From the IMG/VR virus record IMGVR_UViG_3300045988_051499: a stretch of DNA of 64,000 nt; one strand, 5' to 3'. The stretch comes from a virus. The notes under the pieces are model-generated. The model was not told the DNA's origin. It saw only the letters and a program-made list of their open reading frames with translations, and made no database searches. Made by a program: the position numbers and the translations under genes. Positions 6,140-59,631 of the stretch are shown here, piece by piece; positions within the stretch are counted from its first letter, which is position 1, and every line of letters starts with the position of its first letter.

Positions 6140-6392
6140 ATCCTCGTTTTGCTAGCTCTTTCTCCATTTCGTCTAAAATATCATCAATGATACAGTCAGT
6201 TAGACAATCAGAGTCAGGAAAGCCTAAGTTCCGCAGATGATAATCTATGTTATCTCCTACTTCATTAAGTATCATCCAACCTTCGATTTTCTCCTCTCCA
6301 TCTCTTATAAGTGTGCATATCACTTGGTCGATTAACTTAGGGATATTCACATCGTAGTTCTTAACTACCTCTACATTATAACTTATTATCAT
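6129..6392 (-). CDS. hypothetical protein
   Basis: 87-aa acidic ORF. Confidence 0.3.
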   Translation of the reverse strand: MIISYNVEVVKNYDVNIPKLIDQVICTLIRDGEEKIEGWMILNEVGDNIDYHLRNLGFPDSDCLTDCIIDDILDEMEKELAKRGYEC

Positions 6393-7756
6393 GCTTCGTC
6401 TTCAATATTAGTTTCACCTTTGTCAAGTTCCTTTCCTTCCTTATCTAGGAATTTAAAACATTTAAGCTTAAATGCCTCAGATTTCATATTCTCAATCTTA
6501 ATAACTATTCCCTCATGAGGTACTTTGTTATCGCAAGATGGCGAAGTTCGCTCCATATAGAATCTAGCGTCGTTAGCTAATTTCTCCATGAAATTTTCGT
6601 TCCAGTGCTCAGCTTCGTTAAGTTCTGGATATAAGCTATTGGCAGTACCATAATACCACTCTTCTACTGGGATAAGACCTACCTTAGCACACCATTGTTG
6701 AACTTCCCTAGCACTAAATTCGTGAACTACACCATCAACATTAGTTAATGTTACACGATATATTCGCACTTTAAAGTGCTTTTCGTGAGTATACTGTTCT
6801 CCTTCTTTAGGAGGCATACAGCCATAGTCATAATTCTTTTGGATATAGCCACCATTAGGTAAGAAACCAACGATTTCATAATATGCAGTCATACCTTTAG
6901 ACAAGCAAGGTTTAACTATTTTATCAGCTTCCGCCCAAACGTCACACCCGTAGAATCCAGGAGTAACATTCTTATTATAGAACTGATTCTTTATTACCGT
7001 TCTAGAAGCATACAAATAGTCATACTTATTGAACTCTTCTCCAGTAAGCCATTTAGCGATTTTCTGTTTCCAGTTCAGGTCTTGTTTACAAAGCACATAA
7101 GCTGATATACCAGAAGTTCCGTGAATTTTCTCAGTAATACTGATTAAATCATTTGGATGAATTACATTAGGACATTTCTTAATAAGAGTTGTGTCGTAGT
7201 GGAATCTAAATTGTTCATCAATGACCTTGCTGATTCCTTTGACCTTCTTCGTTTGGTTGTTACGTGGTGTGCCACCTTGTCCTTGCTGTCTCTTGGGAAT
7301 GTACTTTTTGTTAATCCAAAATTCTTTGCCTTCATGTTCTACAATATCAAATTCAATACCTGCCTCAACTTCAATCTCCTTATTAGTTACAGACATTATA
7401 TAGTTCTGAAACTGGACTACCGGAAGAATAAAGCCTTCAGATAGCTCATTCTTTAATCTGATAGCTTTTACTCTACCATTATCCTCAAACATACCAGTTT
7501 GTTCTGGGTCATTGTTTAATTCTTTATGACGATAAAGATTACAATATCTCAGAAAATCTGGATTTATACAACAAGCTGTTGGAAAATATACATATAGTCC
7601 TGGCTGAGAATCAATCCCAGTAATGATATTGAAACCATCAATGGTACAACACTTAAGTCTAGTTACTTCTGGGTTACTGTGTTGTCTAAAATTCTTAATT
7701 TCTACAATCTTTGCCAAATAATTGACATTGGCTTTCTTACTTTTTGATAACTTCAT
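6389..7756 (-). CDS. RNA ligase (Rnl2-like nucleotidyltransferase)
   Basis: motif I EKIHGTS matches the T4 Rnl2 lysine-adenylate motif EKIHGTN; 455 aa with extra N-terminal domain. Confidence 0.55.
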   Translation of the reverse strand: MKLSKSKKANVNYLAKIVEIKNFRQHSNPEVTRLKCCTIDGFNIITGIDSQPGLYVYFPTACCINPDFLRYCNLYRHKELNNDPEQTGMFEDNGRVKAIRLKNELSEGFILPVVQFQNYIMSVTNKEIEVEAGIEFDIVEHEGKEFWINKKYIPKRQQGQGGTPRNNQTKKVKGISKVIDEQFRFHYDTTLIKKCPNVIHPNDLISITEKIHGTSGISAYVLCKQDLNWKQKIAKWLTGEEFNKYDYLYASRTVIKNQFYNKNVTPGFYGCDVWAEADKIVKPCLSKGMTAYYEIVGFLPNGGYIQKNYDYGCMPPKEGEQYTHEKHFKVRIYRVTLTNVDGVVHEFSAREVQQWCAKVGLIPVEEWYYGTANSLYPELNEAEHWNENFMEKLANDARFYMERTSPSCDNKVPHEGIVIKIENMKSEAFKLKCFKFLDKEGKELDKGETNIEDEA

Positions 7757-32894: not shown

Positions 32895-33324
32895 CTACTA
32901 CATATTTTAAGATTTCATAACTTTCTTCCAGACCTGCCCTATCATCTAGGAGGATATTGTAATAAGGTTTCTTAGATTTAGAGAATATAGAACTACTAAT
33001 GTTTGGAGCAGATAAAGTATTAGAAGTAATATTTGCTATTCCTAATCGCATACAAATTGTCTGCTTTGCCATAATTTTATAATCATCTTCATCAGTGGTG
33101 AATAAAATCATTTCAAAACCTAGAAGTGAGCATTCTTTAAGTAGTTCTATAACGCAACTATAATCTCCGCCAGTATTATGGTAATCGAAAATAGTATTAT
33201 CAAAATCGAAAGCGACTATTAGCTTTCCGTATTTATGATACTCTTCTAATAGTCGTTTCTTGCAAGCTTCTTTCCCAAAAGGATGATTAAAGTCCATGGT
33301 CAATTCTTTGTCTGATTTCTTCAA
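32860..33324 (-). CDS. HAD-family phosphatase
   Basis: HAD motif I VAFDFDNTIFDY. Confidence 0.45.
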   Translation of the reverse strand: MKKSDKELTMDFNHPFGKEACKKRLLEEYHKYGKLIVAFDFDNTIFDYHNTGGDYSCVIELLKECSLLGFEMILFTTDEDDYKIMAKQTICMRLGIANITSNTLSAPNISSSIFSKSKKPYYNILLDDRAGLEESYEILKYVVDEIKLNQQGNQ

Positions 33325-34837
33325 GAGAATATTCTTTCTTCAAGATACCATCTTCAAAGACAGTCTCTAAGCATCCCTCTTTTTCCTCCTCGATTGAGAC
33401 CTGGTCGGTAGCAGTATACTTCCCATCCAGACATTTATAGACAGCAATCAAACCTTTCAAAGAGTTCTTAGTACCATCATCAGTTTTAGGATGTTTGAAG
33501 ATTTCTTTCAATTCGCCATTTACTACGCAAGCAGTAGCCTTAATAGCAAACCCAAGACTATCTCTACTTGCATACTGATAGGAATATGAACCTACTCCCA
33601 GAACGAGATTACAAGCCGCCATATGAGCGTTTTCTAATCTCAAGTAGATTTGCTTTTGACGTTCTAGAGTAATAGAATCTCCATAAAGCAGACCAACCTT
33701 AGTGCTAGGATAACGGTAATCCTTTGAAGTAGTATTCCATCCGAAGATTTTACCAAGCATATAATATGCCCCATAATATTGACCTTCGGACACTTCAACA
33801 TACTCTGCATCGTCGTTAAACGGAGCATAGCAGCAATAATACTTACCTTCTTTCATTCTGGTATTGAAGTGAGGATTAGTTCTCAACCCGCAGATTATAT
33901 CTACTGGGTCTCCACTATCAGGACGGATTACTACTCTACCATCACGAGCCATAATGTCTTTCTTCAGCTTGGGCAAGAAATTTTCAATTACATTCCAGAA
34001 ATCCCAAGTATCAGATACAATAGAAACAAACCCAGAAGGATACAAATCATTAATTAGACGTTTGAAAGTGCCCAGCTCATCTTCCTCCCCTCCAGCACAC
34101 ATTACAGAGTGTTCTGTTGCTGGAACTGTAGCAGCAATCAATTCCTCGTCTGAATTAGCTCCATAATATTCTTCCAAAGCAGCAATAGCTGGAATAGTTT
34201 CACTTCCCACAAAAGAAGTCATATGCGCCATACCAGATATAATTGCGGCTTCCATTCCCGCCATACCTCGCATTGAGAAATCATGACAACAAAAACCAAG
34301 ATTTACATCTGTTGGAAAACCAGTCTTGCAAGCATGACGATGTAGCTCTTTCTTATAAAGCCTAGCTCTAGTAGCAGATGTGCATGGCATCCACAAGGTA
34401 CAGCTGATAATAGTCTCTAAGTAGTTAGTTAACCAAAAGAACTCGGGTAGAGTATTTGTAATGGTCATCATGGGAACCCGAATAGGGCACACAGAACCTT
34501 CAGGAAGAGCCTTTATGCGAATTGGTAGATACCCAAGGTCATATAAAGCTTCAATATGTCTGTACCCAACGGATTCAATACCAACAAAGTTGTTTACTCT
34601 ACGATAGAACATCTCCACAGCTTCCTTCTTTGGTAGATTAAAGAAGTTTTTCTCAAACTGTTTAATGAGATATTCTTTGATTAGGTATTGAATACCAAAT
34701 ACTACTGAACCTTCGGTTGCTTCTGGGAAGTATTTATTACTTCTAGGAGTCCAGTTACTATAAACTTGTTCAGTACCTTCGGGGTACATTCTGTGATGGC
34801 CCAACTTGTAACCATCTGTAGCATTAATTATTTCCAT
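33287..34837 (-). CDS. nicotinamide phosphoribosyltransferase (NAMPT/NadV-like)
   Basis: 516 aa; NATDGYKLGHH N-terminus, IRPDSGDP, VSDTWDFWN and EHSVMC regions co-linear with NAMPT. Confidence 0.8.
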   Translation of the reverse strand: MEIINATDGYKLGHHRMYPEGTEQVYSNWTPRSNKYFPEATEGSVVFGIQYLIKEYLIKQFEKNFFNLPKKEAVEMFYRRVNNFVGIESVGYRHIEALYDLGYLPIRIKALPEGSVCPIRVPMMTITNTLPEFFWLTNYLETIISCTLWMPCTSATRARLYKKELHRHACKTGFPTDVNLGFCCHDFSMRGMAGMEAAIISGMAHMTSFVGSETIPAIAALEEYYGANSDEELIAATVPATEHSVMCAGGEEDELGTFKRLINDLYPSGFVSIVSDTWDFWNVIENFLPKLKKDIMARDGRVVIRPDSGDPVDIICGLRTNPHFNTRMKEGKYYCCYAPFNDDAEYVEVSEGQYYGAYYMLGKIFGWNTTSKDYRYPSTKVGLLYGDSITLERQKQIYLRLENAHMAACNLVLGVGSYSYQYASRDSLGFAIKATACVVNGELKEIFKHPKTDDGTKNSLKGLIAVYKCLDGKYTATDQVSIEEEKEGCLETVFEDGILKKEYSLEEIRQRIDHGL

Positions 34838-36956: not shown

Positions 36957-37973
36957 TCATTGTTCGGAAATTATTACGATACGATTAAATTCATTATCTC
37001 CAAATTCAGTGGTAATTCCACATCCCTTAACAACCAATTTATCCTCTGGAGCACCATAGCTAATCAGAGCCTTCTTCATAGATTCTGCCCTAGCTACAGC
37101 AAGGTTATTATTAAACTCTTCTGGACCTTCTTCCGAAGCATATCCCTCAATCACATAAGTTTTTCCACTATTAGAAATATAGGAAGCTAGTTCTGAGACA
37201 GCCACATTGGAAGTTTTAGAAATCTCTGAAGAATTTTGAAGGAATTGAATTTTTGGAGTCAAAAGCTCTACTTTAGTAATTTCGATTGTGTCCGTCTTAA
37301 CAATTTCTATTGGTTTACGAGCCATAAGTTCCTCATTCTTGGCTCTCAACTCATTAATAGAAGCGTTTAGGCTTTCAACCTCGGCATCACTATACAACTT
37401 CATAATTGGAAAGTCCCCCTTGCTAGACTTAAAGCGATAGGTAGCACCAATATAGACGTTAAACTCATGATTCAGAGGAGAAGTCTTGGGAAGTAACATA
37501 TACTCAGGAGTAACATTTAATGCCCATCTATTAGAGATATTAAAGTTACATCTAACGGCTCCACGGGCGGATACATTATTATAGACATCTCCATAAGTAT
37601 GATACCAACCAGCACCAACGATTAGTATAGGCTCAAACAGACGCCTATCTCCGTTATATCCACATATCAGGTTAGTAAGATTGGTAGTAACGTTAGCTGT
37701 CAAATTATGTGAATCAAAGAATGTTTTATTTCCTTGGTTCATTCCAGCCATCATGTCTAACTCCAAGCCAAAGATAGGAGTAATCTCCTTACCAATAGCA
37801 ATGTTTACTAGTACATCATTTGGTTCAGCCCAACTTCTTGAGTTGTCCCAAGTTGTGGTACCTACATTACCAGAAACATACCAGTTATCTTTCAAACTTC
37901 CAGTTTCAACAACTTGTGCGCTAGCAAACACGCACATTAAACACAAACAAATAATACTAAAAATTTTCTTCAT
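36957..37973 (-). CDS. OmpA-like outer-membrane protein
   Basis: signal peptide; beta-rich N-domain; C-terminal OmpA peptidoglycan-binding signature NNNLAVARAESMKKAL. Confidence 0.6.
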   Translation of the reverse strand: MKKIFSIICLCLMCVFASAQVVETGSLKDNWYVSGNVGTTTWDNSRSWAEPNDVLVNIAIGKEITPIFGLELDMMAGMNQGNKTFFDSHNLTANVTTNLTNLICGYNGDRRLFEPILIVGAGWYHTYGDVYNNVSARGAVRCNFNISNRWALNVTPEYMLLPKTSPLNHEFNVYIGATYRFKSSKGDFPIMKLYSDAEVESLNASINELRAKNEELMARKPIEIVKTDTIEITKVELLTPKIQFLQNSSEISKTSNVAVSELASYISNSGKTYVIEGYASEEGPEEFNNNLAVARAESMKKALISYGAPEDKLVVKGCGITTEFGDNEFNRIVIISEQ

Positions 37974-48824: not shown

Positions 48825-48849
48825 ATCGGTTGAGCTATAGCCCTGTCAT

Positions 48850-49411
48850 GTGGACCTAACGGGAGTCGAACCCGTGTCCAAACAACCCTTATTACAAGGA
48901 TAACGTGCGTCTCATTTTTATTACATCAGCTAGTGAGTTCTAGCATTTAGATAGTTTTATTAGAAGAGCTGGATTCTTTACAGTAGAGGTGAACCAGCAG
49001 TCCTCCTACTAACTAATTTACAAACTACCAAACTGGGGGGCTGACTAGAAGTCATTCTTCCACCACTCCATTTACGTTGGAGAACGTCTATTTGTAGCCC
49101 ATAGATAGGCAGTGGAGATTTCAGCTCTACTAACCTTTGGCTTTCAAGTTAATGCATCTAAGCTTCACTGTAACCTGTAGGTACTATGATTCTTCCCTGA
49201 AGGTCTCGTTATAACACTTAGATACAAACCTCTTCTGTTTCTAGGTCTCTCCAGTAACCCGACTTGATTAATAGTGTCTATTAATAAGCCAGCAGCTTAG
49301 GCTGCCATTCTTACAGGTGCAATTTCTGCAGTTATTTGTTTTCTTCGTTTAAAGAGATTGCGCTCTACACGTCCTTATAATTCGTAATCGCCTGTCAAAT
49401 CCAAGTAGGCC
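48850..49411 (-). ncRNA. ssrA: tmRNA (ssrA), one-piece, unusually long
   Basis: 5' GGGCCTACTTGGATTTGACAGGCG (cf. E. coli GGGGCUGAUUCUGGAUUCGACGGG); 3' TTTGGAC-ACGGG-TTCGACT-CCCGT-TAGGTCC-A (cf. E. coli UUUCGGAC-GCGGG-UUCAACU-CCCGC-CAGCUCC-A-CCA); acceptor 7 bp with G3-U70; tag ORF GCA GAA ATT GCA CCT GTA AGA ATG GCA GCC TAA (AEIAPVRMAA) at 49296..49328 with resume codon 84 nt from the 5' end, out-of-frame TAA 2 nt upstream as in E. coli, and stop codon in a hairpin loop GCAGC-CTAA-GCTGC. Confidence 0.7.
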
Positions 49412-49454
49412 CATGTTCCAGTTTATCTCTGATTAGAAAACTGGAGAAAAGAAA

Positions 49455-51302: not shown

Positions 51303-51375
51303 TGGACACGCAGGGACTCGAACCCTATCTTCCGGTGTGCAAAACCAGCGCTCTAGCCATTTGAGCTAACGGCCC
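51303..51375 (-). tRNA. tRNA-Ala(TGC), atypical acceptor
   Basis: D arm GCTC-AAATGGCTA-GAGC, anticodon arm CTGGT-TTTGCAC-ACCGG, T arm TAGGG-TTCGAGT-CCCTG, G3-U70 present, but acceptor pairs 5-7 are mismatched; 3' end GTCCACA. Confidence 0.5.
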
Positions 51376-52220: not shown

Positions 52221-52299
52221 TTGCGGAGGTAGGATTCGAACCGTTTATGACGATTTCTAGGTTATGAGCCTAGCGAGATGACCACTTCTCTACTCCACG
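52221..52299 (-). tRNA. tRNA-like, CAT anticodon, initiator-like C1-A72 but disrupted T arm (possible pseudo-tRNA)
   Basis: acceptor CGTGGAG/CTCCGCA with C1-A72 mismatch; D arm GAGA-AGTGGTCA-TCTC; perfect anticodon arm CTAGG-CTCATAA-CCTAG; T-loop TTCGAAT present but flanks AACGG/CCTAC do not pair and about 6 extra nt sit before it. Confidence 0.35.
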
Positions 52300-52724: not shown

Positions 52725-53081
52725 CTAAGAACTAGTATATCCCAATCTAGCTAATTCTACAATTTCACTATGATTGTATAGAATAGTGCCATCTCCTCCT
52801 TTAGAGGCATTGTACCCATTAGAACCATAAGTTCCTAGCTCTTTTATCCAATAGATTTCTCTTTCAGATAATTCAGAGTTACTATCTACATATTCCAATT
52901 CCTCTATCATAAAGTTCTCAACACCATACTTATTCATGGCATCATATAAAGGTCTTTTGTTGCATCTTTCTTTCTAAAAGTCATAACAATGTTCCTTCCA
53001 GCGCTCTTCTATAGAAGTAGTAGTTTTTCCTACGTATCGCTTGCTATTAATTAAATTTGTAATGCAATAAATATATGCCAT
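52725..53081 (-). CDS. GIY-YIG homing endonuclease with in-frame TAG
   Basis: MAYIYCITNLINSKRYVGKTTTSIEERWKEHCYDF-TAG-KERCNKRPLYDAMNKYGVENFMIEELEY...EIYWIKELGTYGSNGYN is co-linear with the I-TevI catalytic domain; single in-frame TAG at 52974..52976 with no frameshift. Track splits it into 52974..53237 and 52725..52937; the first ORF's N-terminus is spurious translation of the adjacent tRNA. Confidence 0.5.
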
Positions 53082-53101
53082 ATTTTTAAATTTAAAATTA
53101 G

Positions 53102-53186
53102 AATCCGTGGAGGGATTCGAACCCTCATTAAAGATTTCTCTTTTCAGTTTTGCAGACTGATGGCTAAACCATTCACCCACACGGAT
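53102..53186 (-). tRNA. atypical tRNA, GCA (Cys) anticodon with class-II long variable arm
   Basis: 85 nt; perfect acceptor ATCCGTG/CACGGAT, U73, anticodon arm TCAGT-CTGCAAA-ACTGA, 17-nt variable arm with stem AAAGA/TCTTT, T arm GAGGG-TTCGAAT-CCCTC. Confidence 0.5.
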
Positions 53187-53187
53187 A

Positions 53188-53490
53188 TTAAGATTTAAAG
53201 TACTTCTCTCTAAATGGGATATTAAATAATGAATCATTAATATCCTTATCAGTTATTTCCCTACCTAGAGCCTTCTCCGCACATTCGCTACAGATAAACA
53301 CATGGTGGTCTGGATAATAATCTTTACCTCCCCCTTTGTAATAAGAGGAGAATTTCTTTGCAGCTTCTTTTTCAAAATTGGTTAGCTTAAAGTAATTTAT
53401 TATCTTGTTCCAAACCTCATCAATAAACATTGGAGAGTTATGGTCTCCATAATAAAATTCTTTATTACATACTGTACACTTTATTTTCAT
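53188..53490 (-). CDS. hypothetical zinc-ribbon protein
   Basis: 100 aa; CTVCNK...CSEC. Confidence 0.35.
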   Translation of the reverse strand: MKIKCTVCNKEFYYGDHNSPMFIDEVWNKIINYFKLTNFEKEAAKKFSSYYKGGGKDYYPDHHVFICSECAEKALGREITDKDINDSLFNIPFREKYFKS

Positions 53491-54956: not shown

Positions 54957-55030
54957 AATCTAGAGTGGGATTCGAACCCACGAAACACGGTTTTGCAGAC
55001 CGTTCCCTTAGACCGCTCGGGCATCTAGAC
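54957..55030 (-). tRNA. tRNA-Cys(GCA)
   Basis: acceptor GTCTAGA/TCTAGAT, U73, anticodon arm ACGGT-CTGCAAA-ACCGT, T arm GTGGG-TTCGAAT-CCCAC. Confidence 0.8.
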
Positions 55031-58430: not shown

Positions 58431-58507
58431 TAGGGACGGTGGGGTTTGAACCCACGTGCGACCAACTACCCTTTCTACAAGGTATAAGCTTGAGGGGATA
58501 CGTCCCT
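58431..58507 (-). other. tRNA-like element lacking a D arm (acceptor plus T arm minihelix with internal hairpin)
   Basis: perfect 7-bp acceptor AGGGACG/CGTCCCT, T arm GTGGG-TTCAAAC-CCCAC, A73; internal hairpin CCCT-CAAG-CTTATAC-CTTG-..-AGGG with a 7-nt anticodon-like loop; no D stem can be formed. Confidence 0.35.
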
Positions 58508-59554: not shown

Positions 59555-59631
59555 TGGGACGAGGCAGGATCGAACTGCCGCTATCGTCCTGGATTTTCAG
59601 TCCAGCGCTCTACCTACTGAGCTATCGTCCC
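59555..59631 (-). tRNA. tRNA-Phe(GAA)
   Basis: perfect acceptor GGGACGA/TCGTCCC, D arm GCTC-AGTAGGTA-GAGC, anticodon arm CTGGA-CTGAAAA-TCCAG, 9-nt variable region, T arm GGCAG-TTCGATC-CTGCC. Confidence 0.8.

Follow-up and report, generated by a model that had tools for sequence, protein, structure and literature searches.

The long variable arm is, in textbook accounts, tied to the transfer RNAs (tRNAs) for Leu, Ser, bacterial Tyr and selenocysteine (Sec). A Cys tRNA carrying such an arm is the subject of this work; it is encoded by an 85-nucleotide (nt) gene within a 64,000-nt stretch of viral DNA from a phage of the human gut (IMG/VR virus record IMGVR_UViG_3300045988_051499), the whole of which is called the window hereafter. 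The nearest published relatives of the gene are the selC* tRNA-Cys (PMC5389517; reviewed in PMC7609411) and the allo-tRNAs (Mukai et al. 2017), and it lies outside both groups by its ordinary 7/5 acceptor/T branch. As in the window tRNA, the selC* tRNA-Cys combine U73 and a GCA (or UCA) anticodon with a long base-paired variable arm, and some members also share its A1:U72 first pair; one of them has been cysteinylated by a variant of cysteinyl-tRNA synthetase (CysRS) (PMC5389517). Their body, however, is Sec-like, with a bulged 8/4 branch and lengthened acceptor and anticodon stems, whereas the window tRNA has the 7/5 branch and an anticodon stem of five base pairs (bp). The allo-tRNAs likewise join a long arm to anticodons of class I amino acids, and some of them are found in phage tRNA clusters, but they have an 8/4 or 9/3 branch and a Sec-like D arm and are mostly predicted Ser acceptors with G73 or U73, whereas the window gene is 7/5 and lacks the Ser determinants.

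The selC* genes occur in anaerobic bacteria with Sec machinery, whereas the long-arm 7/5 class described below is phage-borne, and domains of the selA, selB, selD or selB*/cysS* type were not found by Pfam among the 20 largest open reading frames (ORFs) of the 64-kb window, taken from a genome of ~186 kb. Nematode nev-tRNAs, which Hamashima et al. reportedly described in 2012 as Leu-charged class II tRNAs whose anticodons are those of Gly or Ile, are said to keep their Leu identity and so to mistranslate; the identity marks of the window tRNA match its anticodon. Class and isotype are uncoupled too, but the opposite way, by loss of the arm, in the type I tRNA-Leu of Streptomyces coelicolor (PMC6614811). 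From the sequence comparisons reported here, the window gene probably encodes a functional phage Cys tRNA built on a class-II-shaped scaffold, as one member of a widespread, phage-specific long-arm class.

The gene is a genuine tRNA gene (Table 1, where tRNA nucleotide i stands at window coordinate 53187 - i). It is one of 19 window tRNAs called by ARAGORN, as tRNA-Cys(gca) at 53101-53186(-), and it matches Rfam RF00005 over 53102-53186(-) and model positions 1-71 of 71 with 56.3 bits (E = 6.7e-10; the gathering score is 29 bits), which is usual for the good tRNAs of the window. All seven acceptor pairs, from A1-U72 to G7-C66, are of Watson-Crick type. The variable arm is formed by a 5-bp stem (AAAGA/UCUUU) capped by a GAAA tetraloop of the GNRA kind and followed by an unpaired 3-nt 3′ spacer (AAU), the last U of which is position 48 and keeps the Levitt pair A15:U48. 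The extra hairpin was predicted by RNAfold without guidance (-26.7 kcal/mol, z = -2.59). The gene therefore has the features of a class II tRNA, namely a variable region of more than 10 nt folded as a stem-loop and the 15:48 tertiary pair. An earlier, sequence-only reading of this DNA had pointed to an 85-nt Cys tRNA with a perfect acceptor stem, U73, a perfect anticodon arm and a 17-nt paired variable arm, and had considered it unusual enough for a check. All of these elements are present on the (-) strand, the tRNA is recovered by both ARAGORN and Rfam, and the check was worthwhile, the long-arm Cys tRNA being real, with Cys identity marks and a class-II-type arm.

In order to see this gene among its kind, viral contigs were scanned with the anticodon loop CTGCAAA and the T loop GGTTCGAATCC held fixed and a long gap required, independently of any stem. 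More than 118 viral contigs matched, and on these ARAGORN called at least 68 distinct tRNA-Cys(GCA) genes of 81-93 nt; the class counts that follow refer to the distinct long-arm Cys genes among the matches listed. U73 is present in 65/68, G1:C72 in 61/68 and a 7-bp acceptor stem in 66/68, and the D region measures 20 nt in 56/67. The variable region spans 11-22 nt and most often consists of one unpaired nucleotide, a stem of 3-4 bp, a tetraloop and three unpaired nucleotides, the tetraloop being GAAA in 20 of 55 members. The Levitt pair is G15:C48 in 57 genes and A15:U48 in five, including the window gene. We defined the class by a phage genome, a GCA anticodon, U73, a 7/5 branch, an R15:Y48 pair and an arm made of a stem, a tetraloop and about three unpaired 3′ nucleotides. 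Every one of these features is found in the window gene, which aligns readily with 33 other members and is a divergent, AU-rich representative (A1:U72, a D region of 19 nt, a 5-bp arm and no 5′ spacer). The view that a long arm is reserved for Leu, Ser, Tyr and Sec, from which the sequence-only reading had started, is untrue in phage genomes, where at least 68 long-arm Cys genes and long arms in other isotypes exist. Genes annotated as tRNA-Ser in cultured phages that matched the queries by BLAST were considered as mislabelled long-arm Cys genes and rejected, as ARAGORN identified them as genuine Ser (UGA, GCU and ACU anticodons). These matches show a core likeness between the phage tRNA-Ser and the long-arm Cys.

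Selection on the fold was examined in an alignment of 34 diverse class members, including the window gene, over the cloverleaf, the arm helix and the 15:48 pair. Of the cells in these pairs 96.2% were paired, against 34-46% when the partners were slid by 1-3 columns; changes on both sides were seen in 22/24 pairs, and the observed covariation score was reached by 0/500 shuffles. All three pairs of the arm helix covary, each with 11-15 sequences changed on both sides, and the Levitt pair is formed in 97% of the 34 sequences, switching between G:C and A:U. These compensatory changes in the aligned sequences show that the whole fold, extra arm included, is kept by selection across the class. An alternative that had been considered, a small or recent nonfunctional insert in the variable loop, was rejected in view of a helix that covaries in the 34 members and of an arm identical in 16/16 related contigs.

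The broader possibility of a pseudogene, that is a tRNA-Cys or tRNA-Ser disabled by a variable-loop insertion or an anticodon mutation, has to be weighed here as well. Degenerate tRNAs do occur in phage clusters, weak or irregular ones are present in the window itself (51303-51375, 52221-52299 and 58431-58507), and the A1:U72 pair is atypical; on the other hand, pairing is perfect or nearly so in the four helices and the arm, an Rfam score of 56 bits is usual for good tRNAs of the window, the A15:U48 tertiary pair is kept, the gene is identical in 16 contigs and the class of which it is a member covaries and counts at least 68 sequences. We give a pseudogene next to no credence.

The frequency of the long form was estimated in a second scan with the same loop signature, in which short and long variable regions were both accepted and 119 viral contigs were obtained. 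Nineteen of them (~16%), all already fetched for their long-arm gene, are long-armed phage tRNA-Cys contigs, and the other 100 are new loci whose Cys tRNAs all measure 69-78 nt. When cellular genomes (596 Gb) were searched, the matches to the long-gap pattern were mostly due to chance, and 10 of 120 proved to be real long-arm tRNA-Cys. At least five of these ten lie in dense phage-like tRNA arrays, one of them an exact copy of the window gene, and two (L133 and L178) resemble selC*: both are 92-nt tRNA-Cys(GCA) whose acceptor stem has 8 bp and whose variable arm has 6 bp, and their D arm has a 5-bp stem and a 3-nt loop, whereas that of the window gene and of the phage class has a 3-bp stem and a large GG-bearing loop. 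The two genes, from cellular contigs of a bacterium and of an Actinomycetes metagenome-assembled genome (MAG), probably belong to the selC* type. The class has a cultured member in Rhizobium phage B1VFA, whose gene of 84 nt has U73 and an encoded CCA and is annotated as plain tRNA-Cys-GCA. At loci outside the family of the window phage, the long form is the sole tRNA-Cys in 75/84, including arrays of 29 tRNAs covering 20 isotypes. The long-arm tRNA-Cys is thus a widespread class that is almost entirely phage-borne. A full-text literature search, the coverage of which was incomplete so that an earlier description is possible, returned no published account of a 7/5 long-arm phage tRNA-Cys.

With regard to amino-acid identity, U73 and the GCA anticodon are the major CysRS determinants, and U73 alone is enough in minihelices (PMC9976931). 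Both are present in the window gene, U73 as nucleotide 85 and G34-C35-A36 in the anticodon. The commonest first pair of tRNA-Cys, G1:C72, is read by the CP1 domain and is typical rather than strictly defining; the window gene has A1:U72 at this place. In the phage loci of the class the discriminator was compared by isotype, and we found G73 in 57/71 tRNA-Ser, A73 in 96/98 tRNA-Leu and in 37/40 tRNA-Tyr, and U73 in 14/16 short and 65/67 long tRNA-Cys. The acceptor stem separates Cys from Ser as well: G2:C71 is found in 95% of phage tRNA-Ser and 19% of long-arm Cys, and A3:U70 in 84% and 22%, respectively; the window gene has U2:A71 and C3:G70. Phage Ser arms have mostly 5-7 bp (range 4-7) and one unpaired 3′ nucleotide, and long-arm Cys 3-4 bp and three nucleotides; in the window gene the 3-nt 3′ spacer and U73 are not of the Ser type, and the 5-bp stem length, taken alone, is borderline. 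A Tyr or Leu identity is not indicated either, as U73 and C35 stand in the window gene instead of A73 (and of U35 for Tyr). The bacterial class II tRNAs for Ser, Tyr and Leu thus share the overall architecture of the window tRNA and differ from it in that the anticodon, discriminator and acceptor determinants of the long-arm Cys are Cys-type.

On our reading as a functional Cys tRNA, the gene would be transcribed within the phage tRNA cluster and trimmed by host ribonucleases, and the CCA end would be added by the host, because none is encoded. Host CysRS would attach cysteine through U73 and the G34-C35-A36 anticodon, and EF-Tu would deliver the charged tRNA to the ribosome, where UGU and UGC would be read as Cys. 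The extra arm would be tolerated by CysRS because the variable region is turned towards the solvent when a monomeric class I synthetase such as this one approaches from the D-arm/minor-groove side.

Several points weigh against this reading or against a benefit of the arm. We know of no defence nuclease specific for tRNA-Cys and acting on this host. Copies of the long-arm gene in 16 other related contigs are 100% identical to it, and it is invariant over 10 distinct flank haplotypes, yet the 100-170 nt on either side are equally invariant, so that conservation within the family is, by itself, uninformative on selection. Long arms in other isotypes, described below, fit either general evasion or lineage-specific drift. 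The A1:U72 pair of the window gene is rare in the class (2/68), and selC* tRNA-Cys with A1:U72 needs a specialized CysRS (Mukai et al., PMC5389517), so charging of the window tRNA by an ordinary host CysRS is not guaranteed. Finally, U73 is no absolute bar to seryl-tRNA synthetase (SerRS), being present in 9/71 phage tRNA-Ser, and Mukai et al. treated G73 or U73 as Ser-compatible (PMC5389517); the 5-bp arm stem also falls inside the phage tRNA-Ser range (4-7 bp).

These last features would be the ground for mischarging by SerRS, as proposed in the sequence-only reading, which would place Ser at some UGU/UGC codons; SerRS recognizes the long arm and not the anticodon (PMC7609411), and the scaffold may derive from a tRNA-Ser. 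The Ser determinants are, however, absent, the G2:C71 and A3:U70 signature as well as G73, and mischarging is therefore unlikely. The 3-nt 3′ spacer, in place of the single nucleotide of Ser, matters here because the spacer sets the orientation of the arm, and a tRNA with U73 and GCA would be a strong CysRS substrate competing with SerRS. Moreover, where the long form is the only Cys tRNA, as at most loci, Ser would corrupt every phage cysteine, including those of zinc ribbons. Conversion enzymes of the SelA, SepCysS or PSTK type, and likewise aminoacyl-tRNA synthetases, were not found when the 20 largest ORFs of the window were scanned with Pfam. We regard mischarging by SerRS as very improbable.

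A role outside translation was also considered, in which the tRNA would act as decoy or sponge for a host nuclease, a toxin or a regulator such as a T-box. Phage tRNAs can serve as decoys or supplements against tRNA-cleaving defences (PMC13096335), irregular tRNAs that are charged yet unused in translation were found by Mukai et al., and a normal tRNA-Cys is also present in the family of the window phage, so the long one could be spare. This proposal, too, had been made in the sequence-only reading, and it sits poorly with the predominance of the long form as the only Cys tRNA in phage tRNA sets (75/84 other phage loci) and with a relative (L015) that keeps the long-arm gene and has no ordinary one. 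The elements needed for translation are also intact and under selection, namely the 12-bp 7/5 branch, the T loop, G18G19, the Levitt pair and the anticodon loop. A decoy function is accordingly thought improbable.

Long variable arms are also present in phage tRNAs for Thr, Asn, Ile, Met, Val, Lys, Gln, Asp, Pro, Glu and Arg (IMG/VR loci L019-L129); one locus (L036), for example, combines the long Cys with a long Thr-UGU (85 nt) and a long Asn-GUU (87 nt). Long-arm class I tRNAs of other isotypes amount to 9.4% at long-Cys loci versus 2.3% at short-Cys control loci (p ~2e-7), and loci with such isotypes number 39/84 and 10/95, respectively. This enrichment in the same genomes indicates that the trait acts at the genome level.

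A whole arm added without loss of CysRS identity would be in keeping with the conflict over tRNAs in which evasive phage tRNAs take part. The tRNA-Tyr of T5 acts against Retron-Eco7 and Septu PtuAB, and anticodon-loop variants act against PrrC-type nucleases; in tRNA-Tyr, cleavage takes place in the variable loop, and the same element confers resistance (PMC13096335, PMC11555353, PMC10264068). As in the window, phage tRNA clusters harbour genes for GIY-YIG endonucleases (PMC13096335), and such evasive phage isoacceptors keep their charging identity and differ structurally from those of the host; the changes described are, however, small and within an existing class, whereas in the window tRNA a whole arm has been added to a class I isotype. 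Our leading guess, put forward tentatively, is that a shape unlike the host class I tRNA-Cys may protect the phage copy against nucleases or toxins of the host that target tRNAs. On a wider scale it is possible, if somewhat speculative, that phages evolved and widely share class-II-shaped class I tRNAs, Cys being the most frequent, as an immune-evasion or orthogonality device; the arm would then keep the synthetase identity and either hide the tRNA from host nucleases or toxins or mark it for phage factors.

The arm may, on the contrary, be non-adaptive. The tRNA would still be a functional Cys tRNA, and the arm a tolerated, perhaps stabilizing legacy: a scaffold of the tRNA-Ser type would have acquired Cys identity through changes in anticodon, discriminator and acceptor stem, and phages would then have inherited and exchanged it. 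The long-arm Cys of a 527-kb viral contig (L053) shares the D arm (19/20 nt), the anticodon stem and the T arm with the tRNA-Ser(UGA) of Synechococcus phage RB11-B (L355) and is unlike this cyanophage tRNA in acceptor stem, discriminator, anticodon and arm base, a pattern that suggests wholesale identity remolding on a Ser-type scaffold. In the window, the D arm of the long-arm gene is like that of the window's own tRNA-Ser(GCU), the two anticodon loops are one base apart, and the best combined D+T core match of the gene is a tRNA-Ser(GCU). The D-region consensus of the class (UGgC.GAGUGGuuGAA.Gcg) equals that of phage Ser and short Cys, GNRA arm tips are common to Cys, Ser and Leu, and the clustering of other long-arm class I isotypes in the same genomes fits a reuse of scaffolds at the lineage level. 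Since the window D arm is about equally near Ser(GCU), short Cys and a long tRNA-Ile, its likeness does not settle the origin of the scaffold. The compensatory change that keeps the arm helix across very diverse members implies at least structural selection, and an arm geometry of 3-4 bp with a 3-nt spacer, unlike that of Ser, points to remodelling instead of simple inheritance. Neutrality alone would also hardly account for a form that makes up ~16% of the sampled phage tRNA-Cys and is nearly absent from cells. We thus consider a non-adaptive arm possible, with some doubt, and a neutral or stabilizing legacy of scaffold reuse about as likely as evasion. An origin from tRNA-Tyr was rejected: the arm base of phage tRNA-Tyr (one nucleotide, 3-4 bp, a tetraloop and three nucleotides) is that of long-arm Cys, but Tyr arms never have GAAA or GNRA tips.

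Table 1. Coordinates of the long-arm tRNA-Cys gene, its parts and its neighbors in the window
Feature	Position	Strand	Basis
Long-arm tRNA-Cys(GCA), 85 nt, no CCA encoded	53102..53186	(-)	ARAGORN + Rfam RF00005
Acceptor stem, 5′ strand AUCCGUG (nt 1-7), pairs with 53103-53109	53180..53186	(-)	Sequence read
D arm, nt 10-25: G10-C25, G11-C24, U12.G23 (3 bp); G13/A22 unpaired; GG in loop	53162..53177	(-)	Sequence read
Anticodon arm UCAGU-CUGCAAA-ACUGA (nt 27-43); anticodon GCA at 53151-53153	53144..53160	(-)	ARAGORN + sequence read
Variable arm, nt 44-60, 17 nt, AAAGA-GAAA-UCUUU-AAU	53127..53143	(-)	Sequence read + RNAfold
T arm GAGGG-UUCGAAU-CCCUC (nt 61-77), 5-bp stem	53110..53126	(-)	Sequence read + Rfam
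Acceptor stem, 3′ strand CACGGAU at 53103-53109, and discriminator U73 at 53102	53102..53109	(-)	Sequence read
Zinc-ribbon-like ORF, 100 aa; stop codon abuts the tRNA 5′ end	53188..53490	(-)	ORF + domain scan
Free-standing GIY-YIG homing-endonuclease gene, 211 codons, ends in TAA	52446..53081	(-)	ORF + Pfam
Ordinary-length tRNA-Cys(GCA), 74 nt	54957..55030	(-)	ARAGORN + Rfam, 59.1 bits

The long-arm tRNA is probably co-transcribed with the zinc-ribbon-like ORF upstream of it. On its other side, it adjoins the TAG-containing GIY-YIG gene, as had been stated in the sequence-only reading: the ATG at 53081 lies 20 nt downstream of the tRNA, and six in-frame TAGs (codons 35, 118, 151, 169, 184 and 198) and no other in-frame stop precede the TAA. 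The Pfam GIY-YIG domain spans the first TAG, and weak helix-turn-helix and NUMOD1 matches lie beyond later ones. In relatives, divergent alleles of this gene have TAG codons elsewhere, at 35, 60 and 191 in L003 and L015 and at 14 in L006, and at one TAG the aligned residue of another allele is Gln. Stops of the TAG type are strongly avoided among the minus-strand ORFs of at least 120 codons in the window (TAA 43, TGA 18, TAG 2). In-frame TAGs were not found in other genes of the 64-kb window, nor was a tRNA with a CUA anticodon, the odd element at 58431-58507 having UAU. This suggests either that TAG is a sense codon in the window phage with few uses in the early region, or that a TAG-recoded phage was the source of the GIY-YIG gene. 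With its GCA anticodon, the long-arm tRNA cannot decode these UAG codons; amber-suppressor tRNAs were not significantly enriched near long-arm Cys (7/84 versus 2/95 loci, p = 0.085), and no functional link between the long-arm tRNA and the TAG-containing gene was found.

The ordinary tRNA-Cys that the sequence-only reading had also named is real. Its first pair is a G1.U72 wobble, so that G1:C72 is missing from both Cys tRNAs of the window (A1:U72 in the long one); its discriminator is U73, and its D region, of the Ser/Cys type, measures 20 nt. In relatives (L002, L003 and L018) it exists in several alleles, with compensatory changes in the acceptor and D stems. A recent intragenomic duplication was rejected as source of the long-arm gene, whose best match in the genome is only ~75% identical.

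The window has a G+C content of 36% and encodes PolA, NrdD, ligases, a primase/helicase, a sigma factor and HNH endonucleases. NAD salvage and RNA repair genes are frequent phage counter-defence functions; the window has ORFs for a nicotinamide phosphoribosyltransferase (NAMPT; 33287-34837), an OmpA-like beta-barrel protein (36957-37973) and a weakly RNA-ligase-like product (6389-7756), all on the (-) strand. The OmpA-like outer-membrane protein hints at a diderm host. In GenBank, only two relatives of the window phage were found, human-faecal fragments without annotation, and in IMG/VR there are syntenic relative genomes of ~185-190 kb. One cellular record (L154, CALEBD010000406.1), a 153-kb contig of an 'uncultured Clostridium sp.' MAG that is among the 16 with an identical gene, carries an exact copy of the long-arm tRNA and 10 tRNAs in 8 kb. 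It is almost certainly the window phage genome misbinned into a bacterial MAG, and its host label is unreliable.

The tRNA complement of the window comprises ~22 tRNA or tRNA-like genes and a transfer-messenger RNA, which lies within the tRNA region at 48848-49412(-) and matches Rfam RF00023 over its full length (70.4 bits). Some of the tRNAs are irregular in other ways. The tRNA-like gene at 58431-58507(-), with a UAU anticodon, is detected by Rfam only (31.7 bits). Its acceptor stem and T arm are good, there is hardly any D arm, and 18 nt are inserted in the variable region; irregular tRNAs with UAU that resemble it were described by Mukai et al. An 80-nt tRNA-Met(CAU) at 52221-52299(-) (39 bits), conserved in relatives, has a C1/A72 mismatch as in initiators, a variable region enlarged to ~12-14 nt and a poorly paired T stem. 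The tRNA-Phe(GAA) at 59555-59631(-) has a variable loop of 9 nt (GACGAUAGC), the usual length being 5 nt. At 51303-51375(-), a match found by Rfam only (39.5 bits) and missed by ARAGORN has the Ala anticodon UGC, and its acceptor stem is imperfect.

The known exceptions to the textbook rule, selC* tRNA-Cys and allo-tRNAs, are rare and Sec-like in body, and here the arm, kept by selection, belongs to an ordinary 7/5 tRNA-Cys. For annotation, this means that long-arm genes are now labelled plain tRNA-Cys, as in Rhizobium phage B1VFA. If the tRNA is charged with Cys, CysRS, and probably other synthetases, would tolerate a natural class switch, and tRNA identity could be remolded wholesale on a class II scaffold. 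Natural Cys tRNAs bearing an arm might then also provide orthogonal or taggable scaffolds for synthetic biology. In the same case, the divergence between phage and host tRNAs, which is central in tRNA-targeting immunity, would extend to the addition of whole arms, and, if the arm indeed serves evasion or orthogonality, tRNA class itself would be a battleground between phage and host.

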